Shown in pieces: positions 91 to 42,817 of a stretch of 64,000 nucleotides of DNA (the first letter of the stretch is position 1; each line of letters opens with the position of its first letter). The stretch spans positions 868,001 to 932,000 of the forward strand of contig CP145412.1 of the NCBI GenBank assembly GCA_036867785.1. The letters are read 5' to 3'. The position numbers and the translations under genes were made by a program. The stretch comes from Plasmodiophora brassicae (taxonomy: Eukaryota). The notes beneath the pieces were generated by a model that was not told where the DNA came from, did no database searches, and saw only the letters and a list, made by a program, of their open reading frames with translations.

Positions 91-550
91 TGTCGTCAGT
101 AGTGTAGTTTAGTTTATAGTTGGGATTCCGCGTTTTTCACGCAGGCGCCTTGGTCTCGGGTTCGACGACCGTAGGATCAGCTGACAGAACGTTAGCTTCT
201 CCCGGCCTGGCAGTGCCGGCCTCTCACCTTTGTGCTGGGATCTCGCAGAGCGGTGACTCCGGAGCAAGTCTGAGGGCTCTTTGAGCACCCCAAAGGTTCG
301 TAGGCTATGATCTCCCTCACTGCGGTTGATCTGCCTACATCGTCAGTTGTGTAGACAGGTCAACCGAAGAGATCAAACTCTACGAATCTTCGGGAGCTCG
401 CTGAGCCCCGGAGTCCCCACACGGCAAGATCCCAGCACAAAGGTGATAGGCCGGCACTGCCAGGCCGGGGAATTAGCGGGCGTTCTGCTAGCTGAACCCA
501 AGGTCCTTGGACCCGAGACCGAGGCGCCTGCGTGAAAAGCGCGAATATCA
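91..550 (+). mobile_element. Probable 3' LTR of an LTR retroelement; body would lie upstream of the window
   Basis: Starts with TG right after the PPT and ends ...AATATCA at 550, exactly where unrelated duplicated sequence begins (554). No credible protein ORF. The 5' LTR and TSD are not visible. Confidence 0.55.
129..543 (+). repeat. Imperfect ~415-nt fold-back forming a rod-like stem-loop
   Basis: 129-161 pairs with 511-543 (33 bp, two G-U); 201-243 pairs with 427-469 (43 bp, one mismatch); shorter helices GACTCCGG/CCGGAGTC, GGTTCGTAG/CTACGAATC, TGATCTC/GAGATCA; apical helix 324-340/349-365. Confidence 0.9.
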
Positions 551-553
551 AAT

Positions 554-862
554 ACGATCCGAAGAACACCGAGCAGGTCGGATCCGCTGTAACGCAGATC
601 CATGTTGAGCGCGGGCTCACTGGGCCCTACAAAGAACCTTGCGAGTCTTGCGTCCGCGAATACGATGCCAACAACCAGTCGCCGGCCTGTGTCAACACCT
701 GTACTGTCGACGAATGATTGTACAGGTGTTTGACACAGCCCGGCGACTGGTTGTTGGCATCGCACTCGCAGATGCAAGACTCGCAAGAGGGCTCAGTGAG
801 CCCGCGCTCAACGTGGGTCTGCGTTACAGCGGACCCGACCTGCTCGGCGTTCTTCGGATCGT
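554..862. repeat. Inverted duplication, ~150-bp arms with a 15-nt loop
   Basis: 554-704 is the diverged reverse complement of 720-862; both strands encode NAEQVGSAVTQxHVERGLT..CESC. Confidence 0.9.
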
Positions 863-1131
863 TCCAGCCGCCTTCCGCGACCAATTGCTCCCCGTCGACA
901 CACAGTCGTGGACGTCCGGCGTTGTCTACCATTGACATCCCAGCAGGCGACAGCTTGTACTGGTTGTACAGCTTCAGGTTGCGGATATCCATTGCTGGAC
1001 ACTTTGCGTCATTGCCGACGTACGGGTCGAGCGCCAATATCGACTCGTAGTCGCCGATGATAGATTGGAACGTGGACAACCCCTTCCAGTGCTTCTTTAA
1101 GCCTTGCGCGTGTTCTGCACGTCGGTGCCAT
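705..1131 (-). pseudogene. Degenerate, frameshifted fragment resembling the N-terminal region of Crypton-like tyrosine-recombinase proteins
   Basis: MAPTCRTRARLKEALEG then a frame change to IIGDYESILAL..CPAM..LKLYNQYK..GGWNDPKNAEQ..SAVTQTHVERG..CESC..GCVKH. Family assignment is from my recollection of this motif pattern, not a search. Confidence 0.35.
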
Positions 1132-1552
1132 GTTGGTCGAACAAGTCGATAGGATTCGCAAGCAGCTGGATACCGTGGCGTTGAGCAGCGATTTCAACGC
1201 CACTTTTCGCCAACCTCTCCATCCGGGTGCGCCTCGGCGCAGGAAGACGTCATCTCCCTACCGGCTACCACGACGGTTGCGAAACCTGGCCATGTCGATT
1301 TCCTCGCTGGAAGCTGCCGATTCGCTGCGGACGCCGTCGTACTCGTCGGACACCGCGGAGGATTTGGCGCGGCTGTCTCGGTGGTACAAATAAACTTTGG
1401 CATTTTCGGAGTCCAAACACCATTCACAGAGGGCTGACCAGGCCTCACATACAAAGGCTGCGCACAGGAAACCGAAGTCAACAAGTAGTCGATACCCGTG
1501 GCAGAAGGAAAAGTCGGTGGAAATTACTTCGACCGGGCTCTTAGGTGCGCGA

Positions 1553-2633
1553 ATGAGTGCACTTAGGAAGCGGGCGATCTTGCCCATCGTCCTCGTCGCG
1601 GCGTGCCTGCTGGCCATGGTGGTAGTCATTACCCAGACATACACGGTGGCGTCGCGCGACAATATCCATGCAATCGTGAAATCCAATGAGGCCCCCAGAC
1701 GAACACTGCCCAAGCCGACCATTGCGTTATTGATGCCGGCGAGGTCGACGACCAGTATGGTCGCGGTGGAGAACGCGCCGCTATTGACAACATTCCTGCC
1801 ATCAATGATCGAAACTATTTCGTCTGATGATCGGAACAACTTCGACTATGCGTTGTACATGGGATTTGACGTCGCGGACCCGCTCTTCGACAACGAGAAG
1901 AATTTGAAGACGCTGAAGCAGAAGGTGGAAAACGCGAATGTCTTCAAAATCATCGAGTTCTTCGCATTTCACAAGACTAAGGTATACCAGGCACGCGAGA
2001 TGGCGTTACTTCTAATGTCTATGTCAGGGGCGTCCCGTGCTTGTCTGGAATCGTTTGGCATCTGCGGCGTACAACGACGGATGCCATTACTTTTATCAAG
2101 TTAACGACGACCTCGAACTCGTCTCACACGATTGGTCGCGCACGTTGACTGAACGCCTGAAGAGCAACCCGGTGTTCCCTGGTCTCGGCGTCGCCGGTCC
2201 CCAGGATACCCGCAGACCAAGAGCCGACCTCATGACGCAAGCGTTCGTGTCGCGCATCCACCTGCACATATTCGGCTACTTCTACCCGCCCCTGTTCTCG
2301 AACTGGTGGTCAGACGACTGGATATCAATGGTCTACGGGGAGCAGCACACATTTAGAGCAGACGGTAACGATATTGCTTCCTTACAAACAGACCCGACTG
2401 GACCAATTCCTGACATTACGATCTGCACAGAAATCTTGGTGAGCAATACGCAATCGTATGGCGGCCCCTCCCGATACGAGATTGCACGTGGCGATCAGGA
2501 CATTCTGCAAATACTGGTCGATAACGGCAAGAGGATGATCGGGGAGTTCCTGGAAGAGCACGAACCTGGCGCCACACTGTCCGACGAACCTCGTCACAAG
2601 GACCAAAGATCACCACATGCAATTGGCGATTAA
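1553..2633 (+). CDS. Type II membrane glycosyltransferase-like protein (GT-A fold), 3 exons
   Basis: N-terminal TM helix AILPIVLVAACLLAMVVVIT; YFYQVNDD (DxD-like), TQAFVSRIH and FSNWWSDDWIS motifs; GT-AG introns near 1982-2028 and 2364-2430. Confidence 0.7.
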
Positions 2634-2910
2634 AATGACAATATACCAAACCAGGACGGTGATGTTGTGGGATTCTCTAGCAGTCGACCCTCACGTTCAG
2701 CATCATCCTCTGTCCCAGGGAGTCTGGGAGATGTCGAAAAAGCGAGATGGTCTAGAGACTACAGCCTAAAGTGGCTCTATGTCTCCTTTTGACGGTTATA
2801 CGAAGAGGTATAAAGTTGTACAATTTCCGTCAGTGATGGTGGTCTTATCGCGAGGTTCGCGACTCGAGATGACATGAGAACCCTGTGGCAAGGCGCCATC
2901 GTGGACACTT

Positions 2911-3912
2911 TCACTTCGCAATGGTGACAACAGCCTTGCCCGCGACATGGCCCGTCTCGAGGTACTCAACTCCTTTGACAAGATCCTCGAACTGGAACAC
3001 CTTGTCAATGACCGGTCGAACCTGCATTGTCTCCACCCATCCCTTCAGTGTCTCCAAATACTCCCGCTTGGGCATGAAGACAAAGTTGGCGATCCTCCGC
3101 TGTCTTATGAGGCCGCGAACCTGATTGCCAATCATGCCTGCCAGGAACGAGAGCGACGACTCGTTCTGGTCTGCGGTGCCGACAACGACCAGGACGCCCG
3201 TGCGCGTGAGACAGCTCAACATCTTGGTGACGCCTTGGGTCGACACAATGTCAATCACCGCATCGTACAGGTTGCCCAGATCGGTAAAGTTCTGCTGGGT
3301 ATAATCAATGACGTGGTCGGCACCAAGTGATTTCACCAGAGCGACGTTCTTCGTGCTGCAGACTGCCGTCACCTCCGCGCCCAGCGCCTTCGCAATCTGG
3401 ACAGCAAATGTACCGACTCCACCCGACGCGCCGTTGATAAGCACCTTTTGGCCATTTGCCAGCTTGGCCTGCTCAGTGAGCGCAACGAGAGCGGTGGCGG
3501 CGGCGACCGGGATGGCAGCGGCCTCCTCGTGCGACAGCCGGGACGGTTTCAACGCAACGGCGCCTGCATCGACAGCGACGTATTCAGCGAACGCACCCAG
3601 CACCGGCATGGGTGCTTGTCCGAACACGCCATCGCCGACTTTGAAATCCTTGACGGCGTCTCCGACCTGCTCGACGACGCCCGCAAAGTCAGAGCCGAAA
3701 AGGGAGTTGGGCCTGGGCCTGGTTAGGCCGCCCAGTGCCAGGCGAATGAGGCCCGGCGCCCCACGCAGAACGTGCCAGTCGCCCGCGTTCAACGCAGCAG
3801 CATGGACCTTGACCAGTACCTGGTTGCTCTGAAGCGCGGGGATCGGCACATCGTCCTTGAACTGGAGGGACGACGCCGCTGGGCCATACGCGTTGCGGAC
3901 GTACGCTTTCAT
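2911..3912 (-). CDS. NAD(P)-dependent MDR-family oxidoreductase (quinone-reductase-like), intronless
   Basis: 333-aa ORF with VLVKVHAAALN, GSDFAGVV, the NGASGGVG nucleotide-binding motif, LGADHVIDY and GKAVV. Confidence 0.92.
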   Translation of the reverse strand: MKAYVRNAYGPAASSLQFKDDVPIPALQSNQVLVKVHAAALNAGDWHVLRGAPGLIRLALGGLTRPRPNSLFGSDFAGVVEQVGDAVKDFKVGDGVFGQAPMPVLGAFAEYVAVDAGAVALKPSRLSHEEAAAIPVAAATALVALTEQAKLANGQKVLINGASGGVGTFAVQIAKALGAEVTAVCSTKNVALVKSLGADHVIDYTQQNFTDLGNLYDAVIDIVSTQGVTKMLSCLTRTGVLVVVGTADQNESSLSFLAGMIGNQVRGLIRQRRIANFVFMPKREYLETLKGWVETMQVRPVIDKVFQFEDLVKGVEYLETGHVAGKAVVTIAK

Positions 3913-4243
3913 CGGTTTTGCTGACGGAGCGTCATCGAAGAAGGGACGACAAACGCAACGTTGTTACCAATGTCGTCGTCGCGGGTTGCGCGAGGTATGA
4001 CGATGTCAGTTTGTGCATAGCGGCCCTCTTTGTTAACTGGCCAGGTTCCCGTTAAGGAATGCACCGTGTCAGGAAAGCGTAACGAACGTACGGTACGGTA
4101 CCGTACCATCCCCATGGCTGCGATCTAAAAATATAGCAGCCTCGCTCGGAGCGCCTTCGCCAGAGAGGACGATCCAGCGCCCTGGTGCAGTGGAAGGTAC
4201 ATACCCATACGGCGGAGGGAGGGGCGGACACGCGGGACGCGGC

Positions 4244-4887
4244 TATGGAATTGTTAAAAACAGAGAATGGCTGGTGGAGTGTAAAATACATGTATTTTAC
4301 ACGTAAAAAACATGTTTAAAACAGCAGGGGGTTGCGCCCCCCTCGCAGTACGCCTTCATACCATGGTCACGGTCCTGACAACCTGACCAGATTTGATGAT
4401 CTCTTCGTCACCAACTGGGTACAAATGTGTGCCCGAAATCGCCTCGGCAAGTGTGCCTGGCTCGGCAATGCCAACGAACCCTGCGAACTCCAGTCGAAGT
4501 TACGTCTTCGTCATCGGAATCATCGTCTGGCTCTTCGTCAAAGTCACGTACTTCCGAACCAAGCGACCCGGTTCAACGTGTGAAGGGGGTCATCTCGCGT
4601 ATCTTTGTACGGCGATTCATCTGGGCACTTGAATGCGATCCCAGTTCCTTGCTCAACGTTGCATCCCGATAGTCGAGCGCGTAGCCGGGAGTGCACGCGG
4701 TTGCAGGACTTGTGATTCCGCTCGCCCCCGACGACGACGACACGCACGCACAACGAAGGCTCTGGGATGGATCGGGAAACCCTTACGTTACCTGTATTTT
4801 ACAGTGTAAAGTTGGTTCCTGAGAGGTGTATTTTACATGTAAAAAACAGGCTTGTAAAAAACACCCCTTTATTACAACAATTCCATA
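4244..4887 (-). mobile_element. Non-autonomous, internally deleted hAT transposon (644 bp)
   Basis: Perfect 12-bp TIRs TATGGAATTGTT/AACAATTCCATA; 8-bp TSD GACGCGGC (4236-4243, 4888-4895); subterminal TGTATTTTACA and GTAAAAAACA repeats at both ends; frameshifted hAT dimerisation-domain remnant SSSSG/ERNHKSCNRVHSRLRARL at ~4630-4757 (-). Confidence 0.85.
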
Positions 4888-5076
4888 GACGCGGCATTAT
4901 TACTCAGTCCGACAGTGCGCAGTTGGTCTGCACCTGTCTGTCGACGAAGACAACTGCGAGCGCGTCTACCTGGTGGTTGGCGCGGCGCGTGAGTCACGAC
5001 GTCGGAAGGGAGCACGACACCCGGGATTCCACGACGTCGCCGGTTGCCACTATCCAATCCACGCTAGAACGCGCAC

Positions 5077-9833
<4,757 letters not shown>

Positions 9834-10086
9834 TCGATCCGCCCATTACTAAATACCAATGCATGCCGCCCGTCTCGCCACCGAAGGTGCCCCGTCTCGT
9901 ACTGCCGCTCCGTTCGTGCGTCCACCAACCGCCGTCCGACGTTGTTTACGCCCATCGCTAATTGCCTGCACTGGCAATCGCCACCGTTGTTGCCGCGCAT
10001 GACGAAACGGCTTCGTCAGTCGTGGTGTAGAAGAGAGGCGTCGACCGTCTCGTCACACAATCGGGTACGGGACCGATCGGCGGCCG

Positions 10087-11944
10087 ATGTCGTGGCTGGC
10101 GACGACGGCCTCGCTATGCCTGTCGCTGCTGGCCACGTTCGCGCTCGCCGACCTGCCTGTGCATTGCATGCGGTCGCAGGTGTACGGCGACTGGGACCTG
10201 ACGCTATCGGCGCCCGTCCCGAACCGGAACGTGGCGTGCGGGCACCCGAGCCCCGACACGAACCTCGCCGAGCTCCAGCTGGTGTACGAGATCCGGCCGG
10301 TGTCGGCGGTCCTGCGGGTCAGGCTGTCCGCCCCCAACGTCGTCGTTGATCGCGACACGGCCGAACGAGGCACGTTCACCACGGTCGTCGACGAGGGCAT
10401 GGAGATACGCATCGCTGGGCGCGTCCTGTTCGCCAAGTTCCATTACCATCTCGCGGACCCTGCCGACCTCGACGACGACGACGACGACCTGCCGCCTATC
10501 GACGATCGCTCCGCTTACGTCAGCGACTGCGGTCGCACGTCGCCAGGTCAGATTCGTACACGAGACCGGCGGGCCGTTAGCATGAACGGGACTGGCAGGG
10601 TGGTTCAGGCAAGGCGACGGGCAATGGGGATGCTTCCTGGCGGAGCAGACCAGGCCGTCAGCGAATGGGAAGACGGCGTCTCTCCTGATTCGGAGCAGCG
10701 GGTACTTTGACGAGCACCGGCGGCAGAGGACGTACCAGTACGACGAGGCGCTCGTCGACGCTGTCAACAGCGACCCGTCGTCGCTGTGGCAGGCGACGAT
10801 CTACCCGGCGTTCGCCGACCTGTCCGAGTACACACTGAACAAGCTCATGGGCAGGAAGCGGTACCTGAAGAGCGTCGCCGGGACGCGCGGCGACGCGGTT
10901 CGCGTCGAGGACGACGACGGCGACGACGGCCTGCCGCTGGCCGTCGACTGGCGCAACCACGATGGGCACAACTTCGACTCGCCAATCCGCAACCAGGGCC
11001 GCTGCGGGTCCTGCTACGCGTTCGCCACCGGCGCCATGCTGGAGGCGCGCACCAGGATCGCCCGGTACCGGCACGGTCTGGGCATGAGCAACCCGGCGTA
11101 CTCGACGTCCGACGTGCTGTCCTGCAGCCGGTACAACGAGGGGTGCCATGGCGGGTACCCGTTCCTGGTCGCCAAGTACGCCCAGGAGTTCGGCCTGGTG
11201 AGCCACGCGCGCCATTCGCCCTGCGCGCCCGGGCTCAACACTGACCTCTGGGCACAGTTGCACGACGACGACGACGACGACGACGCCGGGGATGACGACC
11301 AATGCGCCTCCACCGGCAGGGTCCGGTTCACCGACGATTACCACTACGTTGGAGGTGCGGTCGTGGCCGCTGATGGCGGGCGCGCGACCCACCACCCCAT
11401 GGCTGACGGTGCGGCGGCGCAGGGTGGTACGGCGCCTGCAACGAGCGCGACATGCGCCGGGAGCTGGCGCTGTACGGGCCGATCACGGCGGCGCTGCAGG
11501 TACCGCACGACCTCACCATGTACAAGAGCGGGATCTTCACCGCCTGTCCCGACGGCGCCGGCGCCAAGAACGCGGACGGCTACGAGTACAGCGACCACGC
11601 CGTCGTAGGCCGCACCGGTCACCGCGAACGGGGCGCCGGCTGAACCGATGGCGATGCGTGCCCAGGTCATTGTCGGGTACGGCGAGCGCGATGCCGTCAA
11701 GTACTGGATCATCCGTAATTCCTGGGGGACCGCCTTCGGCGAGAACGGGTACTTCCGCCTGCCCGTAAGACGTATTCCGAACGCGCGCGTCCGGCCGGGG
11801 GGCGCTGACCGGGTCGTTTGCCCCCAGCGTGGCGTCGACGCGTGCGGCATCGAGAGCAGCGCCGTCGCCGCGTACCCGTTCCCGCCGTCGAACGGTGCCG
11901 TCAAGAAGCGCCACCGGCAGGCGCGTCGCAAGCAACGCCTGTAA
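10087..11944 (+). CDS. Cathepsin C / dipeptidyl-peptidase I (papain family C1A), multi-exon
   Basis: Signal peptide then ADLPVHC (exclusion-domain start); [11 protein letters not shown] (catalytic Cys), [15 protein letters not shown] (His), IIRNSWG (Asn), CGIES. Confidence 0.88.
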
Positions 11945-11954
11945 ACGCGTCCCG

Positions 11955-12596
11955 TTATCGGGGCGGTCCGTTCATTGTTGTGGTGAAGACGCGCGCCGCC
12001 TGCCCCGGGTCGGCCATGTCGGCCGGCGACATGGCCGGGTTGATGCGGGCGACGACGTCGTCGACGTCGCCCGGCGGCAGCTTGGCGGCGGCGACGACCA
12101 GCAGCTGTCGGAGGTCGTCGGCGCACAGCAGGCGGAAGCGCGGGGCGCCGGCCGGGATGGATCGGAAGCCGGGCGAGGCCGTCAGGCGGACGAGGCCGTC
12201 GTAGATGGCGCCGGCGTCCACGGACGCGTCCGCCAGGCGCCGGGCGGCCCGGATCTCGACCTGCCCGAGGCCCTTCGACCGCAGCAGGACGAACAGGATG
12301 CCGACCTGGCGGCGGACCAGGTCGATCCGGTCGCCGGACAGGTCGGGTTCGACTCGGCGTCGCCAGTCGTGGACGTCGTCGACGTAGCGCTGCAGGGCGT
12401 CGGCGTCGTAGTCGTCGTCGTCGCGGCACGGCAGCTGGGCGGCCCTGGCGAACCAGCGACGCAGCGTCTCCTCCAGGTCGTCGTTACCCGGGCCCAGCGC
12501 CGCCGTCATGACGACGACGAGGACGGTGACGCCCAGGATGGCGGCCGTGACGACGATGGCGGCCGACCCGAAGAAGGCCCGGATCTCATTCGCCAT
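11955..12596 (-). CDS. Hypothetical protein with N-terminal transmembrane/signal anchor
   Basis: Uninterrupted ORF MANEIRAFFGSAAIVVTAAILGVTVLVVVM... with GC3-rich codons; no family recognised. Confidence 0.55.
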   Translation of the reverse strand: MANEIRAFFGSAAIVVTAAILGVTVLVVVMTAALGPGNDDLEETLRRWFARAAQLPCRDDDDYDADALQRYVDDVHDWRRRVEPDLSGDRIDLVRRQVGILFVLLRSKGLGQVEIRAARRLADASVDAGAIYDGLVRLTASPGFRSIPAGAPRFRLLCADDLRQLLVVAAAKLPPGDVDDVVARINPAMSPADMADPGQAARVFTTTMNGPPR

Positions 12597-12847
12597 CGGA
12601 CGTGGGATTTGGAAGTGAGCCAGTGGGGCCGGAACCTGACCGCCAGGACTAGTCGTCACCGATTAATGCTCGCCGTCATCGCGGTGTGTGGTGGGGGGAG
12701 GGGGGTCGACGACCCCCCTGGTCCCGTTACGCGAAGAACACGGCGGGCGGCAGCAGGGGCAGAGGGCGACGAAGCCGGGGGCAGGCTGGCGGCAGGAGAA
12801 TATCTAGTAATATCAGGGCGTGTGCCATATCAGTATATGGTTCGGCG

Positions 12848-14997
12848 ATGCGATGGGCCGTCGCGGTCAGCTTAACGGTGGGGGCGGTGATCGTCACCGG
12901 GCGATGGCGGGTGCTGGTTGCCGCCGGCTCGTGTGCGGATCTCCAGCCGGTGGCGCTGTCCGCCCCCGAAGTCGGGTACCAGAGCGTGCTGGCGATCCGG
13001 CTCAGCGCCCTGTCGCTGGGCGAATCCGACCTGTCGACCTACGCCAGCTGTAGCGCCACGAACCTGACCTATCGGGGGCCGTCGTTGACGACCGCGTTCC
13101 GGGCCGTCGTCCAATCCGGCGCCCGTGTCACGTTGTCGCAGATCGAGTGGGTCATGCTCGACAACAACCTGATCCAGGGCGGCATCGGCCTCGCCAGGTT
13201 CATGTCCGCCCTGCCGGGCGTCCGCGTCGTCCAGCTGTTCGCCAACACGATCACGGGGCTGGCGGCCGGCACGTTCGCCGCCCAGACGCAGCTGCTCCTG
13301 CTCGACCTGGGCATCAACCCGATCACGACGCTGCCGGCGGCAACGTTCTCCTCGCTACACCGTCTGCAGGCCTTGTCAGTCGGCACAGGCGACGTCTACA
13401 CCAGGTTGCCGCTGACGTGGCACACAGGTTCCTGGACTCGTGCGACCTACAGACACTCCCGGCCGGGATCTTCTCGCCAATGACCAGCCTGCATGAGCTG
13501 TAAGGCGGCCTACTCCCCTCGGGGCCCGCCTCTCTGCCCCTGACAGGCGCGCAACAGGTACCTGTCGGCGAACCCGAAGCTGTCGTCGTTGCCATCGGGC
13601 GCGCTTGACGATCTGCCGCTGCTGTCCTATGTGTACGAGTCGACGGCGGTAGACGTTGTACTGGAGCCCGTAGAGTCTGACGACAGCTGGTGCAGGAACG
13701 TATCCGAGACGCGGGTCGGGTGTTTCCCGAGTGCGCCAGGCGGGGCGACGTTGTACGACCCGCCGACGTTGCCGAATTGTCGACTGGATCCCGTGCCGAA
13801 CGCGATCTACCCGTCGCAGCGGGTCGCGTTTACCGTTGCCGAGCCGTGCACGACGTTCACGTCGCCGACGCTGGTGTCCGATCTGGCGGGCGCGTTGAAC
13901 GCAAGCGCGTCCCGGTTCGGGAACGTGCAGGTCGTCGGCGTCCCAGAAAACCCCAGCGCCTGCGCCCTGCAGGTCGACATGATGCTGGACAACGCCGGCA
14001 ACAAGCACGCGTACACGTCGTTGCAGGCGCAAGCGTCGACGACGAACAGCCCGTTCCTGAACGGGCAGGTGACGCGGTACTACCTGGCGCATGGTGGCGT
14101 TGTCGCGTCGGCGGCATCCGTTCGCGCTTGCCAGAACGGGACGTCCCCAAACACGTACTTCGTTGACGTGGGCGTGTCGTGCACGCCGGGCGGCAACTCG
14201 CAGGCAGCAGGTTTGTCAGAACAGTGGAAGCCAGGTCCATCGTGTGGGTTAAGATGTGGCCGGCAGGCGGAGGTGGCTGGTTCCAGACGGTCGTGGATTT
14301 CGTGCAGCGAATCTTCGAAGGGTGGTGGAGCCCACCTGTCTGGGTCATGTTCAGCCTGATCATCCTCTTCCTGTTGTGCGTCCTGCTGGTCGCTGTGGCA
14401 ACCGTCCGGCTCGTTCGGCAGCGGTACCTGGCCACACGGAACGAACGCGCTGCGAATTACTGGAGGCAGCCCGATAAGGTGACCGGGTACGCGGCTGCCG
14501 GTAACGATCATCGCCGCAAGGACAACGCTATCAACCTGTCCGATAACGACCCGCTGTCCGACCTGGCATCGTTCCACGACATGCAGATCGATTCCCGATG
14601 GAGCAAACAGAAGTCGTCGTCACCGGTGGCGGCAACGGGCCTGCCCAGCGACCCACATATGTCCAGCCCTCCCAGCAGGCCATGGAAGGTACAGGTCACG
14701 CAACCAGACGAGCGGCGCATCGACCCGTTCTGGCACGAACAGAAGGTCATCCAGGTCAAGACAAAGCCACCGACGAAGGCGCCCGAGATTCCGGTGGAAA
14801 AGCCCAGTCCCCGGCAATTCCAGGAGCCGCTCGACTTTATTATGCCGAATGCCTCGCTGGGCACGCAGGCGCCGCCGATGTCGCAACCCGTCACCAAGGT
14901 CCGACCCGGGCTGAACGCCATCCGCCGACAAAAGTTCAAAGCGCTGACCGACACGTCCGGCGACGACTCCATGCCGGACACGGACGCCGAATTCTAG
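12848..14997 (+). CDS. Type I membrane protein with extracellular leucine-rich repeats, multi-exon
   Basis: Signal peptide; LRRs (LDLGINPITTLPAATFSSL, FLDSCDLQTLPAGIFSPM, LSSLPSGALDDL); TM helix VWVMFSLIILFLLCVLLVAV; low-complexity cytoplasmic tail. Confidence 0.75.
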
Positions 14998-15053
14998 AAA
15001 TGAAAACGTTACGCAACAGGCCCAAGTCGCCGGGAGGCGATTTGGGACCACGG

Positions 15054-15175
15054 ATGCAGCTCCCACTGCTGCGCTGCGCTGCGCGTAGGTCGCCTGTCGC
15101 GCTACCAATGCAGCTCCCACTGCTGCGCTGCGCTGCGCGTAGGTAGCCTGTTGCGCTATGCGATGCAGCTCCCAC
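15054..15175. repeat. Tandem repeat, ~54-bp unit, two full copies plus a partial third
   Basis: ATGCAGCTCCCAC starts at 15054, 15108 and 15163; units contain (GCTGC)n. Confidence 0.85.
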
Positions 15176-16952: not shown

Positions 16953-18597
16953 ATGTCGGCACCGGCCGCCGGAGCAAATGCGAGATGCCACTCGTGCTTC
17001 GGGTCTGATTTCGACTACAACGACCTGGGGTATCTGGTGTGCCAGGACTGTGGCGTGCAGTCGCATGTAATTTCGGCCGCAACGACCGTGTTTCGCTGGG
17101 CGCGCGTCTAACTTGCCGTCGATAGGTCGCCACGCAGGAGCAGACGGAATACGACCAGGTTGCCAAGGGGCTTCGGCGATTAACGCAGACTCAAGATGCC
17201 GAGCCAGGTTCATCCAGCCGTCCGGATAACTGCCGTCAGACGTCGACGTCGTCGCTACTGGCAACTGTTCAGCAAGTTCTGTTTGTGCAAGCCAAGGCGT
17301 TCATAGAACATGCACAACTTCATTATGGCCTGTTTGAGGCGATTGGATCGCTGTTCCTGGCCTTGCTTGAAGGCTGGAGGCAGACGTCAAACGATCGTCC
17401 TTTTGTCGTGTGCTTTCGAACCGACTATGACGACCTTCGAGAATCCAGTACGAGGAGTGCTGTTGTTAACGCAAGTGTTTCTAACGTCTAACGTTCAGGC
17501 TTCGAAGTGACTGCAAAGACGACGCTTGCAATCCTCGGTCTGGCCTGCAACCTGGAGCGTGTGCCAGTGACATTTGACGACATCGCACAAATGGCAATCC
17601 GAGGTATTATACCAACGAGGCGCCTCCGCGAGCATCTACGTCCTGATGTTGCCGCCGACATGTCTCCACGCCTGCAAGCATTTGTTGAATGGCAAGGTCT
17701 ACCGGTCGGCCACGCGCTTGAGCGAGGTTGTCTCGTATCCTGTATGATTGGCGACCCCCGACCTTACCTATTTGTCATTGTGTTAGAGGCCAATAAGATC
17801 CATCGCACAATCACGCGTATTTGCTCACTGGAGATGCTGCCAGAAATGGTTCCATTCTGTTCCAATGTTCCAATGCTAATCGCTCGATACGTGGAACGTC
17901 TCGGCCTTCCATGCGGGGTCGTTGCTCCGACCTGCGTCTCACTTCTTCGTCTGTATCAACGGGTTCATCCCGACGAGGAGCTGAATTCAGCACGCATCGT
18001 CGCCGTTATTGTCATCGGCATCAAGCTGCTCTATGGATGCAGATCGAGTGCACATCGCACCGCATTTGACGACTGGCTCTCTCGATTGCAATCGGTTCCT
18101 GACTGCCGAAATCCACCCGGTGACTCGGACGATGCGGAGAGATCTGTTGTGAGTGGGGCGAGTGCCTTACCTGTTGTATGTCAAATGACAGTCCTGCACA
18201 GTTGTTTGTTGACTGGGTCCACGATTACGAGGTGGTCCATCATTATATCACATTGTTGCTCAGCGAATATGACGAGCTGTTCGTTGTGCCCGAACGTACA
18301 ACCGGTGACCGTCCCGGTCCTGTTCCTGCCCATCGTAACGACATGGACGTTTACGACGATGTCGGGTGTGATTGCTGGATTGACCCCAACGACGAGAAGT
18401 CGCCGGCGCCTAACGAATTCGTCACGTACGCGAACAGAGCCATTGGGCACGGCAGCTGCGAGTATCACTTCCGTCACCAACGCCTCGTGTCTGCCTGTGT
18501 CGGCACATTCGGTTTGAGTGGCCAGCTAATGAACCTGTTCATCGACACCACGCTCATGGAGATCTACAGTTTGCAAACCGGCAACCCGGCTCGGTGA
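16953..18597 (+). CDS. Rrn7/TAF1B-like RNA polymerase I initiation factor, multi-exon
   Basis: N-terminal zinc ribbon CHSCFGSDFDYNDLGYLVCQDCGVQS; cyclin-like region PVTFDDIAQMAIRGIIP and IVAVIVIGIKLLYG. Confidence 0.7.
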
Positions 18598-19083
18598 GTC
18601 TTCAACGTAATAGACCACATAGCGAGGCGCAGAATGCGGATGCAAAGTCGAACCTCCCGCGCCGTGTCCCGTGTCCGAAAGTACCTACCTCCACACCATG
18701 AGGAACAGACAGTCTTGAACGGACGGGAAGGGGGCCGGGCCCCTATCTGACCCAGACAACGGGAAGTCGTCGGATTGTGAATGCAAGTTCGATCGGCGAT
18801 GGTGCTGCGTCCCAAGTCGTCACGTTGTTTGTGACGGTGCGCCCTGCTTCCTGTCCTTCATCTACACAGACACGCCACATGTTAGACATCACCTTAGGCA
18901 GAAATTCAGACTAGAGAAACCGGATACGAAACAAGTATAAGGTTTCGCTGCCGCATGTCCGCTTATCGAAGCCTGAACCAACGCTTGATGGATCAAAGCC
19001 ACACACTGACTTTCGTTAGCGCATGTGCCGCCGTTCCCAATTAAGAGACCGGCCGCCGGCGTCTCCCAAGCTAAGCATACGCC

Positions 19084-20192
19084 GCGTTGGGACAAAAGTT
19101 GGGCGCGGACACGATGCAACGACGGCTGAAACGCAATCAACAGTCAGACCGGCGACAGGGCGAGCAGGGACTTTGAAAGCCATCGTGCGCAAGGACGTGG
19201 TCGAAAAGGGCTTATAAGCGGTACAGGAACCCCGCAACGTTTCTACATCAGACGACGTGGATGTCCGGCACTGGAGACTGTCAGTCGCCATTTGTACCGG
19301 TTGGATTAGGGTGGAGCTGTCGCGGGGGAGCGGAGACCTGCTGTGTGAGGACCCGGTTAAGGTTCTGGCGCGCCTGCTACACACACGTACGTCTGAACGT
19401 CGATCGTCCGTATGGTCCGATACCAACAGGATGACAGCCGATGATCGGGAATGCTGGGCGCCGCTGGTCGGCGCGGTGATCCTGTCAGTGACGATCCTCG
19501 TCATCCTTGATGCGCGCAGCATACTGGACAAGGCAGCAGCGAAAGTCGCATCAGGCGTCATCCTTGGAGTCGTTCTTTGCCTGATCGTTTTCAAGGCTTC
19601 TGTGATCGTTCGCCGAGAATGGCTTCCAAACACGCAAGACCACCCTTCTGCAAGCGAGCACCAGCGCCGTGTCCACATTTCGTGACGAAGATCGTTCAGG
19701 CAAAGAACGACTCCAAGGATGACGCCTGATGCGACTTTCGCTGCTGCCTTGTCCAGTATGCTGCGCGCATCAAGGATGACGAGGATCGTCACTGACAGGA
19801 TCACCGCGCCGACCAGCGGCGCCCAGCATTCCCGATCATCGGCTGTCATCCTGTTGGTATCGGACCATACGGACGATCGACGTTCAGACGTACATGTGTG
19901 TAGCAGGCGCGCCAGAACCTTAACCGGGTCCTCACACAGCAGGTCTCCGCTCCCCCGCGACAGCTCCACCCTAACCCAACCGGTACAAATGGCGACTGAC
20001 AGTCTCCAGTGCCGGACATCCACGTCGTCTGATGTAGAAACGTTGCGGGCTTCCTGTACCGCTAAGCCCTTTTCGAGCATGTCCTTGCGCACGACGTCTT
20101 TCAAAGTCCCTGCTCGCCCTGTCGCCGGTCTGACTGTTGATTGCGTTTCAGCCGTCGTTGCATCGTGTCCGCGCCCAACTTTGTCCCAACGC
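19084..20192. repeat. Long near-perfect inverted repeat: ~500-bp arms, 111-bp spacer
   Basis: 19084-19584 is the reverse complement of 19696-20192; differences are concentrated toward the outer ends. Confidence 0.95.
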
Positions 20193-20239
20193 CGGCGGCA
20201 TAGAAATGATACTGACGGCGTATCTCTCGGCAGGACAAA

Positions 20240-21010
20240 TTAAAACTCCTTAGCCTGAAACTGATCAGCTCGGTCGACCACTCTCTCTGTGCAGCAGGTA
20301 GAGTCGCCCATCGTTCGTCAGATCGATGCGGCTGACGTCGGCAATGGCGATGTCAATATCGTCGTCCGTCAAACCCCTTCGAATCGAGCCGATTCAATGC
20401 TCGATCACGCGCAGATGTACCGAGGCCCAGCATTCGGTCGAACGCGTGACGAACGTCGCGATTGCCGATAGCGTCATGGTATTGTAAATAGTGCAGAGCA
20501 TGAGTAGGCACCGCGTATGTCATCCTGGCGTCAGACGGCAGTACTGAACGGCAGGAGATCTCTGAAATCCGTGCAGGACGCGTCCCCCGTTGCCGCATCG
20601 CGCCTATCTGCGTGTCAGCCATTTCTGGTCAGACCAGCTGAGCAGCGCAGGCATGCCGGGCATCGCAGCATGCATGTAGGACAGTTGACCCGATTCCCAG
20701 CACGCCTCGCGTCCAGTGCCGCTCATTTACCTACGACGTTCTCGCCAGGACCTGGTCTTAGTCGACGTGGTTGCTCGGCACGACATCGTTCGGGAACGAG
20801 ACGCTTGTGATTGTGCCGTTCGAGGGCGATATACATCGTGTCGAGTCAATACACGGGTCACGTACCAGGTTTGTATCCAACCATCGCATGCAGGCGGACG
20901 CCGGTCAACGTGAAGCAGGCGCCGACTCCGTGGTGGACGTCGTCGGCGCGACCGATGACCCGACGACGCTGACGGTCGCGAACGCCGGCCACTGCATCGT
21001 CGTACATGGC
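20240..21010 (-). CDS. Possible multi-exon hypothetical gene
   Basis: Protein-like segments (MYDDAVAG..., GLTDDDIDIAIADVSRIDL...) separated by GT-AG-like intervals; structure unresolved. Confidence 0.3.
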
Positions 21011-26231: not shown

Positions 26232-26287
26232 TAAAGGTACCCTAGATTTTAGGGCGCACTTCATATATCGTTGAGCAGAAGGCCGTG

Positions 26288-26297: not shown

Positions 26298-26341
26298 CAG
26301 AGCGGAAGCGTTCCCAGTGCGTGTTATCTCGTCTGTACGAC

Positions 26342-28200: not shown

Positions 28201-28221
28201 ACAAACGTTCTGAATCCGGTA

Positions 28222-30197: not shown

Positions 30198-30385
30198 ACG
30201 GGCCACGGGTGAATGGTCCATCTGCATTTGATGTCCGCGCATGTCGAGAATCCTCACAACACCGCATGGGGCTCTATCTTCTGGCCACACGTTTCCGACG
30301 ATTTTGATAAAATTTACTAGATTGGGAGATGCGACATTGGCGATAGAGCAGTGTGACGGTTTCCGCCACAATTCTTCACAGGCGA

Positions 30386-31890: not shown

Positions 31891-32419
31891 CGTCCGACAG
31901 CGACGACCGCCGCCTCGATCGCGTGATCAATGTGGGCGCGTGCGCCGCCCCCACACAGTATCGTCGAATATCTCCAGGCCAGGCCGACCCAGCCAGCAAC
32001 AAGGCTGACCGATGACGACCAAAACGGACCGGGGCCGACTTCCCCGCCCACGTCGTCGTTTGCGAGCGTGGCTTCTAAATATTTTGAGAGCATTTTAGGC
32101 GGCGCAGCTGACATCCATCCGACCATCCCCCGTCCAGCCCCCCGTCGAATCATTTGGGTACGCAAGTATTGCCAGAGTGAAGGAGCTTAGGGTTTACCTG
32201 CACAAGTATCACGCCAGGGCAACCAGCGTGTTCGTCGTTGTCGTCGGGCAATCACTGACTGATGCAGGCACCTGATCGATGAGGACGCAGATGGTAGGCC
32301 GAGCTGCCGTATATACTTAGCATACGTTCACATGCAGGCGCACCCCCGGGCATCTTCTAGAATAGTACACACGGCACCGCCGACATGGCCACGGTCATGG
32401 ATAACGGTATCCAACGCCT

Positions 32420-33381: not shown

Positions 33382-33579
33382 TACGAACGTGACTCAGATA
33401 AGGACCACTGAAGCAGCGCGGCATGGAATCTAGATGATGATGAAACATCAAGGACTAGGGACGTAGCTGGTCGGGCATAACCGCTGTGCCCAGCGGACCG
33501 CCCATCACAGTACCCATTCAACGGGAGTGCGGGCAGAACGACCGCCTGCCTGTCACCCCTGCTGTTCTGCTGACGACGG

Positions 33580-35644: not shown

Positions 35645-35683
35645 AAGCAATCAGGACGTCCTTTAATATACGCCGCGTGTACC

Positions 35684-36282
35684 TCACAATGACTTGACGT
35701 ACTCGTTGAATTCTCGCTCATATCGAGCACGGTGTTCGGCATCGGCTGCCTGATACGTCATTCGTTGATCATCTCCGGCCTCCTGCCACATCTTCCCTAA
35801 CAAACGCCCAACATCGCCTACGTGGCGCTGAGGATATTGCATGGTCTGCGATAGGACGTCATTCTCACCGAATGAAGCTTTAGGATTTGCCTCAACGACT
35901 TGGCCACGGTTGTCTTGACAGAAGAGCAGATAGGCCCCTAACGGCCTCCTACGTCACATGCTGAAGTCAGAGGGGTACAGCAGCTGACGTAGCGGGCTGA
36001 CTTGGGCGCATTTGGATCCCGCTTAAATTTCTTGCGTCGTTTCCTCTTCTTCCTCACGACAGGAACAGGGGCATTCCGGGCTGTGGTTTGCGTGTCAACC
36101 GTGACAGCCTGTGGACGCCATCCTCCACACAGCGTACCTGCAATCTCGGAGACAGGCGGCTGCGCAATCGGCTTTCGGTCGACACTGAACGCGTCCCGTC
36201 CGGGATTGCGATCCTCAGCGCGACCTGCATTGGACGCAGGCGCCTGGCAGCGACCGTCGCCCGGGGGCCCTTCGTACTTCAT
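35684..36282 (-). CDS. HMG-box protein (Nhp6/HMGB-like), multi-exon
   Basis: Manual splicing gives KKFKRDPNAPK|RPLGAYLLFCQDNRGQVVEANPKASFG|DVGRLLGKMWQEA..YEREFNEYVKSL*. Confidence 0.88.
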
Positions 36283-36354
36283 CTGGGCGGGTGGTCGCGG
36301 GGTCCGCCGCCGGACTTGCTTGGCCGGGGACACCACCCAGCCGCTGCGACCGCC

Positions 36355-37857: not shown

Positions 37858-38067
37858 CCGATAATTCTACATACATATGTTTAAAGCGCAGTACAGCGAC
37901 GACGGCCTGTATCGTCATAACGGGGCCCGTGCAGTGCCGGCTTCCGCCTCAGTCGGGCCTCTGTGTTCTGCGACTCTCACAGCCGCCAAAAATGGGAGCC
38001 GAAAAGGACCCAATCGGAAAAGCGTCGCCTCGCTCGGGGTGGCTGGCCCCGCTTGCCGTTGGGCCGC

Positions 38068-40777
38068 ATGTCGTCATCGGGTAGCGGGGGCGGACCCGGA
38101 TTCACGTTCAACCACAATGACATGACGTTGGAGCAGGCGCAGGCGATCTGGTCGCTGCTGCGCAAGGGCATTATGGAGATTCAGAACGGCAACGCATCAA
38201 CGTTGCGATACGAAGAGTTGTACAGGTCCGATTCGGGCGTGGTAGTTAATCGTCAGCTGTTCATGGATCGTCGGCGCAGGAATGCCTATACGTTGGTGCT
38301 TCACAAACACGGGCCACTGCTATACGACGGCGTTGCTCAGACGATCCTCGACAAACTTGGTATAGCCCATCGTACCCGCCTTCGGATTCAAAACCGACTC
38401 ACCGTTTCTTTGTCCAGAGAGCATTGCCCAAACGAAAATCGACAATGCGTCCGACGACCAGCTGCTTCGTGTCCTGACCGCCGAGTGGGAGAAGCACAAA
38501 CTGATCATGACCATGATCAGGGACGTGCTTATGTATATGGACAAGACATTCTGTGAACGAGATTCTCGCATCCCCGTGTTCGCCATGGGCATTAACCTGT
38601 TCCGCACGACGATAATCGGGCGAGGATCATGTCCCGAGAAGCTTCAGTCGGTGCTTCTGAGAAGTATTTATCGGGAGCGACATCACGAGGTCATCGAGCA
38701 GGACCTGATTAAACACTGCCTGGCAATGCTGGTCGAGTGCGGGAATTGCCCGCCAGATCATCCACGAATCTACGAGGAGTACTTCGAGAAGCAGTTTCTG
38801 GAAGAGACCCGCCAATTCTATCGTCGAGAATCGGCTGAATTCATCTCCCAGAACACTGTTCCCGACTACCTGCGGAAAATCGAGATGCGCCTTAACGAGG
38901 AGGACAGCCGGGCCGATCATTATCTGCACGACGATACGAAACCGAAACTTCGCGCGGTCTGCCACGACGAGCTGATCACGAATTATGCTCAGACATTGGT
39001 GGACAATCCGAACACCGGGTGCGTCTTCCTACTGGAGCATTCAATGATTGATGGTCGGGATTCGTCGGTTGCTTGAAACAACATGTAACAATTCGATGTT
39101 CGCAGATCTGCATCGCATGTATATTCTGTTCAAGCGCGTCCCGTCGACGCTGGCTATCGTCTCTGACTGCATGAAAAGCCTTGTTCGGCAGGTCGGTGAA
39201 GCATATGTTGCCGATCCTGAAAACAAGAAGGTGGGTTGTTCTATTGAATTTGATGCCCATGTTGCTTAGTGGCGCTTGCAATCAGAACCCTTGCAAATTC
39301 GTCCAGTCCGTTCTCGATCTGAGAGCGAAGTTTTACGGTACCGTAGAGAAAGCGTTCGATGGAGATCGGTCTTTCGCACGAAGTTTGAAGGAAGCCTTTG
39401 AGCACTTTATCAATATTGGTTCGTACGGTTCTTGCGCCATGTTATCATGCGTTTGTAACCAACCTCTGCAGACTCTCGAGCCGCTCAGTACTTGTCATTG
39501 TACATTGACGGCATGCTGAAGAAGGGCCTTCGCGCAGCCGGTGAAGACGAAATCGAAATGCGTTTGGAAGAAATTGTCACCATTTTCCGGTTGATAACGG
39601 ACAAAGACGTGTTTGAGGAGTTCTACAAGATTCATTTGGCGTCACGTCTGCTGACCAGGACGCAGGCCTCAGACGATGTTGAAAAATCGATGATCGCGAA
39701 ACTGAAAGCGGAATGCGGGCATCAGTTTACCTCCAAGCTAGAGGGCATGTTCAAGAATATCGATCTGTCAACGGAAATCAACCGAGGGTTCCAGCTGTGG
39801 TTCCAGGTTAGCGTTTGCAGATTTGCAGCACGCCCTCGAAGTCAATTTTCGTTCAGGGTGCGTCTGCCGGCAAAGGTCCACAAATTTATGTCAACGTGTT
39901 GACTTCGGGTTTCTGGCCGTTTCCCGAATCGCCACCATGCGCTCTTCCTCAGTTAGTCGCATCGACTGCTGAAATGTTTGCCTCATTCTATAGGTCCAAG
40001 CATGCAGGGCACAAAATCACGTGGCAGACGTCGCTCGGCACCGCTGAACTCCAGGTAGGCAACTGGCTTCCTCGTCAATACTGTACAGCATTTTGAGTGT
40101 ACCCTGGCAGGCACGTTTCAACAAGGGGAAGAAAGAGTTGATTGTGCACACCTACCAGATGTGCATTTTGATGCTGTTCAACAACAACGATAAGTTGAGC
40201 TATGCGGACATCCTGTCCTTCACTGCAATTCCTCATGCTGAGCTGCAAAGGCATCTTCTGTCCCTGGCACATCCCAAGGTTCCAAACAGACGGGATTCTT
40301 GTTGCATATGTTCTCAGAGAGTATCCCTGTTCAGGTTAAGGTCCTACTGAAGTCACCGAATACGAAGAAAATCGAACCAGATCACATGTTCATGTACAAC
40401 ACAGAGTACACGTCTTGTTTGTACAGAATCAAGATTCCGTTGCTTGCTGCGGCGTCAGAAGCGGCTGCTGTCCAAGAACAGCCGGTCCCACCGGCAGTGA
40501 TGGAGGTGAGAAGCACATGGGGTCCTTGGCGCTCGTACAACGATGACGGGTTCATTGTCAGGCTAGGAAGAATCGCGTTGATGCTGCGATTGTCCGAATT
40601 CTGAAGGCTCGCCGAACTTTGGAGCACAGCCTCCTAGTTGCAGAGGTCCACAAGCAACTACACGCGCGTTTCAGTGCTGAGCCCCAGTTGATCAAGAGGC
40701 GCATCGAGGCACTAATCGAGAGAGAGTACCTGGAAAGGGACAAAGATGACCGCCGCATGTATCATTACCTTGCATAA
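38068..40777 (+). CDS. CUL3: Cullin (CUL3-like), multi-exon
   Basis: YEELYRNAYTLVLHKHG, MIRDVLMYMDK, DKDVFEEFYKIHLASRLL, KLKAECGHQFTSKLEGMF, IKRRIEALIEREYLER..YHYLA. Confidence 0.92.
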
Positions 40778-40877
40778 TGATCAGGGGCCCTGTCCACAGT
40801 CTGCATAAAATCTACTGTATGCCCAAGCCGATCTTCGAGAAAGTAGATTGTATATAGCATCTGTGGGATAGAGGCCT

Positions 40878-41219
40878 CTACTGCGGCATCGAGCGGATGA
40901 TGTCGGAGTCACCAGGGTCCGTGATGGTCAAGCACGACACACGGAAGTACTTGCCGCACGACGTTCCGAGTTCGATGTTGTTGCCGGAGTAGTGGTGAAC
41001 ACCAGTCTTGGCAAGCATGGCATAGTACTCGATCTCCGACTTGCGCAGCGCCGGGCAGTTGTTCGCGATGATCACGAGCTTGGCCTTGCCCATGCGGAGC
41101 GACTTCAGCGTCGACTTGTAGCCGAGCGAGTACTTGCCACTCTTAACAACGAGCTGCAGACGGGAGTTGATAGACTCGATAGCCTTCTTGGCCTTCTTCT
41201 GCTGAGTGGGAGCCACCAT
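40878..41219 (-). CDS. RPL30: 60S ribosomal protein L30 (eL30)
   Basis: [43 protein letters not shown]; probable 5'UTR intron ending CCCTAACAG just before the ATG. Confidence 0.98.
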
Positions 41220-41596
41220 TGCTGTTAGGGAGCCTGCGTTGCTCGCGGACGAACCGGTCTTTACAACGATGCAGAACGAGATCGCGTCTACCGGATTGCG
41301 CGGCTTCTCTCACGGACTCCGTGGGCAACGCATTAGGGCACCCTCATATAATTGTGAACTGAGGTTTGCCAGGCGGGTGTGAAGACTAGGTAGCTGTAGT
41401 ACGTCGCACTGTCAGACCTGAATGTTGTCAGCTTTGGTCCGCGTCTGCCAACCAGAATGAATGCATCCGTGGGCCTGAAGTACGCTGCTCTGATGAAGTT
41501 CATCAAAATTGAACTTGTGAAGAGAGATGGAGGTAAGATGCAATCGATGGAGGTAAGCACCTTGGACGCACCCAACCGCGTTCGTAGGAGTAACCT

Positions 41597-42817
41597 CGTT
41601 CTGTAGGTTACTCCCACGAAAGCGGTTGGGTGCGTCCAAGGTACTGCCATCGAAAAGAGCTCACAATGGGCAAACGTGGTACACGCGATCCCAGGTCGAA
41701 CGGCACGGCCGGGGACCCCGACAAGCGGCCTGTCGTGCTCACCGTATGTGGACACCTCATATGCTGGCACCGCATCGAGGACAGGGCTCATATAAAGATT
41801 TACAGGCGTTTGAGTCGGCGGTGTCACGATGTTCGGCAGCGAGCCGGTAACACGAAAAGAATGGCGTGAAGCACTTCTGGACGTTCTTAGATCAGGTGCT
41901 GCCATCACCACGTCGACCTTTTCAAACGGCGGAGGAGCTTCGCAGCATTGTCAACGACGGCGCCGATTCGGCGGTCGTTAATGGCGTTCTGATTCGGTCG
42001 TTTGCCGGATGGCTCGTGGACACAATGGCAGACGCCGACAACATTTGCGAAGCACCTGGAGGGCTTGAGATCCGCACTCTCCCATGGATTCTTCGATGGG
42101 AACGTTATCGAATCTCTGGAAGCGATGAAGCACGCTGCTCTGATGAAGTTCATCAAAATTGAACAACCGATGGAGGTAAGCGATGCAATCGAAGAGGTAA
42201 ACGACGCAATCTGTCAGGTTGCATCGCTTACCTCCATCTCTCTTCACAAGTTCAATTTTGATGAACTTCATCAGAGCAGCGTGCTTCATCGCTTCCAGAG
42301 ATTCCATAACGTTCCCATCGAAGAATCCATGGGAGAGTGCGGATCTCAAGCCCTCCAGGTGCTTCGCAAATGTTGTCGGCGTCTGCCATTGTGTCCACGA
42401 GCCATCCGGCAAACGACCGAATCAGAACGCCATTAACGACCGCCGAATCGGCGCCGTCGTTGACAATGCTGCGAAGCTCCTCCGCCGTTTGAAAAGGTCG
42501 ATGTGGTGATGGCAGCACCTGATCTAAGAACGTCCAGAAGTGCTTCAGGCCGTTATTTTCGTGTTACTGGCTCGCTGCCGAACCTCGTGACGCCGCCGAC
42601 TCAAACGCCTGTAAATCTTTAGATGAGCCCTGTCCTCGATGCGGTGCCAGCATATGAAGCGTCCACATACGGTGAGCACGACAGGCCGCTTGTCGGGGAC
42701 CCCGGCCGTGCCGTTCGACCTGGGATCGCGTGGACCACGTTTGTCCATTGTGAGCTCTTTACGATGCCAGCACCTTGGACGCACCCAACCGCGTTCGTGG
42801 GAGTAACCTACAGAACG
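41597..42817. repeat. Long inverted repeat: ~600-bp arms, ~26-nt loop, with extra templated fragments at 41476-41596
   Basis: 41597-42190 is the reverse complement of 42217-42817; inner part nearly identical, outer part more diverged. Confidence 0.95.

Follow-up and report, generated by a model that had tools for sequence, protein, structure and literature searches.

A 64,000-nucleotide stretch of nuclear DNA from the clubroot pathogen Plasmodiophora brassicae (hereafter, the window) carries four long inverted repeats, designated A to D (Table 1). The longest exact inverted seed spanning no more than 3 kb measures 190 nucleotides (nt), compared with 13–19 nt in all ten first-order shuffles. 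A more sensitive scan of all 64 kb, which returned 17 pairs, added no long inverted repeat to these four; the remaining 10 pairs are 20–38 nt in length, and 7 of these 10 lie in GTC/GAC-type simple sequence. A preliminary description of this DNA, drawn up from the letters alone, had placed four fold-back loci with unrelated arm sequences here. The repeat search recovers all four positions, and the unrelatedness is borne out by arm comparison across the window, with the arms of A, B, C, and D sharing no similarity with one another or with any other part of it.

Arm identity in gapped alignment rises from 82.5% in A through 90.7% in B and 96.8% in D to 98.4% in C. The paired segments of A are 129–191/481–543 (84%) and 201–265/405–469 (89%), and those of B are 554–628/788–862 (93%) and 638–695/730–787 (91%), with the stem of B continuing to the loop. 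C pairs 19217–19587 with 19693–20063 (99%) and 19080–19214 with 20063–20197 (92%), leaving 105 nt between its arms. D is more complex: its main arms enclose an inner stem of 20 bp (42169–42188/42219–42238) that leaves a 30-nt loop, and the outlying segment 41476–41596 comprises a diverged copy of the loop-near end and a 41-nt copy of the far end of the right arm. The latter copy forms a 41-bp mini-hairpin, in which 41556–41596 pairs with 41605–41645 at the start of the left arm. Predicted RNA folds of all four repeats are near-unbroken hairpins, each with the long arms, short loop, and long double-stranded RNA (dsRNA) stem that define a hairpin-RNA (hpRNA) locus structurally. Fold energies are −304.9 kcal/mol for A (z −23.3), −283.7 kcal/mol for B (z −28.0), −1146.9 kcal/mol for C, and −1250.1 kcal/mol for D, with little difference in minimum free energy between the two strands. 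Positions that distinguish the arms number 8 in C and 18 in D. The window holds no Rfam match and no tRNA gene.

Three of these repeats can be placed on small-RNA (sRNA) loci published by Zhang et al. (Adv Sci 2026; PMC13547706), a study cited here from its text and supplementary tables. A single offset (PbJS Ctg_4 coordinate = 794079 − window coordinate) puts the precursor of the microRNA (miRNA) Pb-miR060 on A, PHAS21-292 on C, and PHAS21-291 on D. The Pb-miR060 precursor, at Ctg_4:793621–793870 (250 nt), falls on window positions 209–458, and the inner arms of A span 201–469; PHAS21-292, at Ctg_4:773811–774995 (1185 nt, P = 0), falls on 19084–20268; and PHAS21-291, at Ctg_4:751262–752597 (1336 nt, P = 0), falls on 41482–42817. 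Five of the six sRNA-locus ends agree with repeat ends within 4–11 nt, which fits a precursor defined by the repeat. The tables (240 miRNA and 435 PHAS rows) contain just one triple of this kind, and a triple of any kind arose in 79 of 5000 random offset pairs. The exact match to the mature Pb-miR060 has no counterpart in 100 shuffles, and a copy with one mismatch lies in the other arm of A (222–242, plus strand). A is published as a miRNA with the 250-nt precursor, which covers part of the full fold-back. In the matching PbJS interval, all three listed sRNA loci lie on three of the window's four long inverted repeats; judged by these coordinates and the one exact 21-mer, three of the four fold-backs coincide with published 21-nt sRNA loci. 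With 724 rows listed across 25.2 Mb, around 1.8 loci would be expected in 64 kb, compared with the three that are listed, and the window is thus typical of the genome rather than exceptional.

The repeats can also be followed in sequencing data. Two DNA runs (X2 and X5) and two RNA runs (X15 and X19) were compared, all as Logan contigs; none of the runs found to contain the region is recorded as RNA, and X15 and X19 are taken to be RNA only because their contigs skip GT..AG introns of 47–64 nt that are kept in X2 and X5. At least half of the sampled window words occur in 20 of the 24 listed runs (nine studies). Both flanks are unique and continuous at every locus. Contigs of X2 and X5 begin at 851, around 11 nt inside the right-arm boundary of B (862), and end at 19124 in the left outer arm of C. 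The C arm contig of X2 has a depth of 124, compared with 57–66 in the flanks, and although depth is a weak measure, this doubling fits two collapsed copies, both of them local arms. PbJS and the window place the Pb-miR060 precursor and PHAS21-291 equally far apart to within around 10 nt, implying that the full 1.1-kb palindrome C is also present in PbJS. Each of the four is a genuine inverted repeat of the genome.

Table 1. Inverted repeats and associated features of the window (window coordinates).
Feature	Coordinates	Strand	Description
Locus A	126–546	−	421-nt imperfect fold-back; arm identity ~82%; stem ~200 bp; Pb-miR060 precursor; multi-copy family
Mature Pb-miR060, 21 nt	428–448	−	Exact match to published 21-mer (Table S8, PMC13547706)
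Locus B	552–864	−	313-nt fold-back; arm identity ~91%; loop ~15 nt; codons 45–96 of a truncated, candidate Crypton-like tyrosine-recombinase gene
Truncated transposon gene	714–992	−	Codons 1–96 of a homologue of the 589-aa protein P0121; ends at the centre of palindrome B
Gene left of C	17492–18517	+	Open reading frame; RNA contigs extend from it into the left arm of C
Locus C	19080–20197	.	1118-nt fold-back; left arm 19080–19587, loop 19588–19692, right arm 19693–20197; PHAS21-292
Locus D	41476–42817	.	1342-nt compound fold-back; main arms 41597–42164 and 42250–42817 (97%); PHAS21-291

The sRNA pathway of P. brassicae is consistent with a long dsRNA precursor. In this organism, 90.3% of sRNAs are 21 nt long, with a 21-nt phase and a 2-nt offset between strands, and the genome encodes two AGO proteins (PbAGO1 and PbAGO2) but neither Dicer nor an RNA-dependent RNA polymerase (RdRP) (PMC13547706). 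Long dsRNA is cleaved in vitro by PbDRL, a Drosha-like RNase III on which sRNA production depends, and the origin of the dsRNA behind the small interfering RNAs (siRNAs) is called "unknown" (Zhang et al., Adv Sci 2026; PMC13547706). The hairpin search of that study was limited to folds of 1000 nt, a length that C (1118 nt) and D (1342 nt) both exceed. With no RdRP in the organism, intramolecular hairpins suggest themselves as the dsRNA source.

We put at around three in four the probability that long hairpin transcripts from these repeats supply dsRNA for RNA silencing in P. brassicae. The fold-backs would be transcribed across the loop to give long, near-perfect hairpin RNAs with stems of around 150–600 bp. 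PbDRL would then cut the stems stepwise from a defined end, the stem base, into 21-nt phased duplexes, which would load into PbAGO1/2. By this route, A would yield Pb-miR060, C the phased siRNAs of PHAS21-292, and D those of PHAS21-291. A transcript across both arms, cutting by PbDRL at these particular loci, and any silencing effect are the parts of this scheme that we infer. The preliminary description had proposed a genome-wide hairpin-RNA system feeding Dicer and Argonaute, and much of that idea stands: A, C, and D sit at published 21-nt sRNA loci, two AGO proteins and an RNase III are present, and such loci are common in the genome. Its Dicer component does not, Dicer being absent and a Drosha-like enzyme cutting instead (PMC13547706).

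Table counts from the same study (PMC13547706) bear on how far this scheme might extend. Precursors of at least 300 nt account for 68 of 240 miRNAs, and those of at least 200 nt for 128 of 240; of the 435 PHAS loci, 60 overlap a folded miRNA precursor, and 54 are at least 1000 nt long. Adjacent PHAS pairs separated by a gap of 400 nt or less number 75 in Table S6 (around 3 expected), and in 39 of these pairs the members are similar in length. One such pair, Ctg_5:754192–754576 and Ctg_5:754708–755092, consists of two loci of 385 nt each. These figures hint that paired PHAS loci are the arms of inverted repeats with silent loops, or they may merely be split loci. A wider proposal, tentative and rated a little short of even odds, is that most of the 435 loci termed 'phasiRNA-like' (phased siRNA-like) are hairpin-RNA genes, created when fragments of transposons or genes were duplicated as fold-backs, with read-through from neighbours transcribing them and the largest having been missed as hairpins through the 1000-nt limit. 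Under this proposal, the series from D and C (97%–99% arm identity, phased siRNAs) to A (82%, one miRNA) would represent siRNA hairpins of a rhizarian ageing into miRNA genes.

B is the only one of the four loci with an identifiable homologous target family. The sole database match to its open reading frame (ORF), at 81% identity, is to a protein of P. brassicae that NCBI/UniRef lists as 'Tyr recombinase domain-containing protein'. In a tblastn search of P0121 against the window, residues 1–96 align with 992–714 on the minus strand (81%) and residues 45–90 with 556–693 on the plus strand (91%); six further tblastn rows have E-values of 0.68–8, leaving the rest of P0121 without a credible match in the window. 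On this alignment, B consists of codons 1–96 of a transposon gene, with the fold-back point at codon 96. The inverted copy (556–693) is nearer to the intact paralogue (91%) than is the in-place copy (714–992; 81%, with a 3-residue deletion), a difference that suggests either gene conversion by a further copy or a higher rate of decay in place. Atlas look-alikes of P0121 carry Phage_integrase (13%–53% of members), ALOG, DUF3504, and NDC10_II, which we take to be the set found in Cryptons and their domesticated relatives. P0121 itself has no match in sequence searches of Pfam, NCBIfam, and PDB (phmmer), and 'Crypton-like' is offered as a candidate label for the source of B, as a lead. B would most likely act in the same way as the other loci, against the Crypton-like transposon family. 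A and B may belong to a single minus-strand transcript, because the strand of miR060 (−) is also that of the transposon fragment in B.

The origin of the other arms is less apparent. The 155-aa ORF in the C arm has no homologue (69 candidates), all seven arm ORFs submitted to Pfam fall below the cut-off, and GC content by codon position is weakly coding-like in one frame each of C and D. For a 103-aa ORF in the D arm, 1.84 billion representatives yield a single match. This is to a spider repeat protein of 5398 aa, with an E-value of 1.2e-27 summed over 15 stretches; the stretches are 25%–40% identical, the listed single-alignment E-values start at 0.003 and run upward, and the match was rejected as chance inflated by repeats. 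These searches detect neither a coding origin nor a source paralogue for the arms of C and D. The description of the arms as coding-like, with no visible transposase, thus needs revision: apart from the weak codon-position pattern, it finds no support for C and D, and it is wrong about transposase for B, whose arms are a fragment of a transposon gene. Likewise, the intact source paralogue that was to be sought for each arm is found for B (the 589-aa protein P0121) and for neither C nor D.

C differs between isolates. Its left outer arm (19077–19289, 213 nt) carries around 13 substitutions and 2 indels in both X5 (DNA) and X19 (RNA), and X2 is identical to the window across the same interval. 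Elsewhere, X5 differs at just two positions (9824 and 9825) in around 19–20 kb outside a repeat at 4276–4838, and the right arm of C in X5 (20006–20182) is unaltered. The hairpins look young and fast-evolving rather than conserved.

RNA contigs enter C from the left in both RNA runs, extending from 18202 to 19274 in X15 and to 19322 in X19. The X15 contig departs from the window's left C arm by five base changes and one 3-nt deletion, all six of which are the variants of the right arm; either the right arm is transcribed toward the loop, or the left arm has been converted in that isolate. The plus-strand gene from which these contigs extend is a possible read-through source of the C hairpin RNA. 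RNA-contig cover of 19644–20300 is near nil (0.78 and 0), and no inference is drawn from it. To the right of C lies a minus-strand gene whose 3′ end, near 20250–20270, faces the repeat. D is flanked on the left by L30e, on the minus strand and transcribed away from D, and on the right by a minus-strand gene that ends near 43040 and faces D. Read-through from the two genes with 3′ ends facing C (around 20260, −) and D (around 43040, −) would be a plausible source of hairpin RNA.

As to how the repeats arose, the probable route is either repair of breaks by fold-back (snap-back) or template switching at them. B has its axis of symmetry within an ORF, and D contains nested partial copies, the pattern that would be expected from repeated template switching.

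Several observations weigh against long hairpin transcripts as the dsRNA source. No loop-crossing transcript appears among the Logan contigs, which collapse the arms and place such a transcript, its strand, and its ends beyond their reach. The sRNA link consists of the coordinate tables of PMC13547706 and one exact 21-mer, the PHAS tables being without sequences, and the agreement in coordinates is independent only if the window assembly is not PbJS itself. B is missing from the published sRNA lists (Tables S6, S7, and S8; PMC13547706); however, its absence says little, as these lists hold 5280 phasiRNA-like and 90 hc-siRNA-like siRNAs together with 234 miRNAs, and cover a small share of the 78,890 siRNAs. 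Just one of the X5/X19 changes in the left outer arm of C improves pairing with the right arm, and this near-total lack of pairing-improving changes implies that the outer stem of C is not conserved. Arm mismatches show no G:U strand bias at any locus (plus/minus counts: A 11/7, B 5/6, C 1/3, D 5/3), and thus give no indication that the RNA fold of either strand is under selection. C also sits between convergent genes, where intermolecular dsRNA is possible, and PHAS21-292 exceeds the right end of C by 71 nt, overlapping the 3′ end of the gene next to it.

Some of these points recur in the alternative that survives best, although it too is unlikely: that the loci are ordinary transposon structures (miniature inverted-repeat transposable elements [MITEs], foldback elements, or terminal inverted repeat [TIR] elements) or neutral scars that fold-back repair has left behind, their small RNAs being by-products of genome defence with no regulatory role. 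This alternative overlaps with the hairpin explanation in that it disputes function and not sRNA production. A lends itself to such an interpretation: five contigs of X5 and three of X2 contain its right end and diverge after 545, and A therefore belongs to a repeated family. Beyond 545, the diverged sequences resemble one another in both runs; a metagenome scan with the terminal repeat of A returned no matches. B is made from a transposon gene, the nested partial copies of D are typical of template switching, the outer arms of C decay between isolates with no compensating changes, strand bias in G:U pairs is absent, and EDTA lists 812 TIR elements in the genome (Table S5, PMC13547706). The X2 depth of the C arm contig, around twice that of the flanks, fits two copies at one locus, however, and the axis of B lies within an ORF rather than at the end of an element. 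No target-site duplication is seen by eye at A, C, or D (the right flank of A adjoins B, and a duplication there could have been lost), and the four loci have no transposase or terminal motif in common. The statement in the preliminary description that these are not ordinary TIR elements holds for B, C, and D and is doubtful for the multi-copy A.

A second alternative, the main competitor on the origin of the dsRNA but an improbable one, attributes the dsRNA at C and D to overlapping transcripts of convergent neighbours (natural antisense), with the inverted repeat incidental. The arrangement of genes lends it some weight: C lies between the plus-strand gene at its left, whose RNA contigs enter the repeat, and the minus-strand gene at its right, into whose 3′ end PHAS21-292 reaches, and a minus-strand gene also ends to the right of D. 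The left neighbour of D is nevertheless transcribed away from it, and antisense overlap would not predict that five of six sRNA-locus ends fall so close to the ends of the repeats. In addition, A is annotated from a folded hairpin precursor (PMC13547706), and stems of 500–600 bp at 97%–99% identity would fold intramolecularly faster than separate molecules could pair.

Far less probable still is that the hairpin small RNAs are exported to silence genes of the host plant. 'Cross-kingdom' occurs in the text of PMC13547706 only within a cited title, and the three miRNAs validated there were found in resting spores and not in clubbed roots. What speaks for export is context only, in that P. brassicae is an intracellular plant parasite and that runs labelled as plant metagenome or as a second organism contain the sequence.

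That the palindromes are assembly or library chimeras has next to no chance of being correct: chimeras of long reads and of amplification are often inverted duplications and all four loci come from one assembly, but the flanks are unique and continuous at every locus, contigs from two other studies break at 851 and 19124 with the C arms at raised depth, the PbJS spacing from miR060 to PHAS21-291 equals that of the window, and the published sRNA loci cover both arms over their full length (1185 and 1336 nt).

The remainder of the window encodes, among others, an ArfGAP, PAT1, a DEAH helicase, a cytochrome-b5 desaturase (with no relative above 52% identity), and an ABC transporter. GC content ranges from 52% to 69%, in keeping with a genome value of 59.4% (Table S4, PMC13547706). 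Between an ADH-like gene and the ABC transporter gene, 4240–4860 contains a high-copy element with a summed contig depth of around 1150–1440, compared with 50–60 nearby. This element has many variant letters in all four runs and AT-rich, TGTAAAATACA-like palindromic motifs at both ends; it does not form a global hairpin (z −1.46), and is probably a transposon or MITE. Very short introns occur within 2422–9275, where 11 GT..AG joints of 47–64 nt are listed, in RNA runs only, and 9 of these fall in the ABC transporter gene (5625–9275). The region 10000–15000 is GC-rich (0.63–0.685), with simple GAC/GTC repeats and many loose contig ends; contigs of DNA and RNA runs alike have joints that skip 772–773 nt here (10488 to 11261/11262), those of RNA runs also have joints that skip 1915 nt, and the coding region is repeated or varies in length. 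At 15054–15175 follows a tandem repeat with a 54-nt unit, present in 2.2 copies with 92% matches.

Pb-miR060, PHAS21-292, and PHAS21-291 (PMC13547706) occupy the same loci as A, C, and D and give phased sRNAs of 21 nt. The study classes C and D as 'phasiRNA-like' and leaves their inverted-repeat nature unmentioned in its text, where 'inverted' occurs 0 times and 'palindrom' once, in the legend to Fig. 2G, for a miRNA locus. No paper describing PHAS-like loci of P. brassicae as inverted repeats was found in full-text searches, a scope that excludes figures and most of the second supplement of PMC13547706; a broader search on hairpin endo-siRNAs yielded nothing more specific. Thus, A, C, and D are already annotated as sRNA loci, and the inverted-repeat reading of the phased loci seems to be absent from print.

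Both phased-siRNA loci in the window are near-perfect inverted repeats of more than 1 kb, and the only miRNA locus is an imperfect repeat of greater age. Were this to apply genome-wide, it would answer, from existing assemblies and sRNA libraries, the question of dsRNA origin that the 2026 study left open for roughly 79,000 siRNAs, and it would mark transposons or genes silenced by the parasite. The gain is modest in that hairpins are the expected dsRNA source where RdRP is lacking, and the loci are already annotated.

Hairpin-RNA loci are well known in flies, plants, and Chlamydomonas. In Drosophila, hpRNA genes giving endogenous siRNAs were reportedly described by Okamura, Czech, Kawamura, and colleagues in 2008. 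These genes likewise have stems of several hundred base pairs, operate with no RdRP, and give phased 21-nt siRNAs from arms derived from their target genes; they are, however, cut by Dicer-2 with Loquacious and have known targets, whereas P. brassicae has a Drosha-like enzyme and a candidate target for B only. In plants, Allen et al. are said to have described in 2004 inverted-repeat siRNA loci and young MIRNA genes that arose when target genes were duplicated in inverted orientation; the description of Chlamydomonas miRNAs with long hairpins is attributed to Molnar (2007) and Zhao (2007). Together, these form a range running from long, perfect hairpins with many phased sRNAs to shorter, imperfect ones with one dominant species, and the difference between A (82% arms, one miRNA) and C and D (97%–99%, phased siRNAs) fits that range. 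Plants nevertheless use Dicer-like enzymes, and C and D here have no detectable source gene.

MITEs and foldback transposons resemble the present loci in consisting largely of long terminal inverted repeats, and A is multi-copy as they are. The present loci differ in that inspection by eye revealed no target-site duplication at A, C, or D, C is apparently two-copy at a single locus, and the axis of B lies inside a transposon ORF. Plant PHAS and trans-acting siRNA loci, from which PMC13547706 borrows its label, also give 21-nt phased sRNAs. They require a miRNA trigger and RDR6, however, whereas P. brassicae has no RdRP and its loci are self-complementary; therefore, the mechanism cannot be of the plant PHAS type. 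If the hairpin explanation is correct, A to D would provide a rhizarian example of hairpin-RNA genes, known otherwise from flies, plants, and algae.

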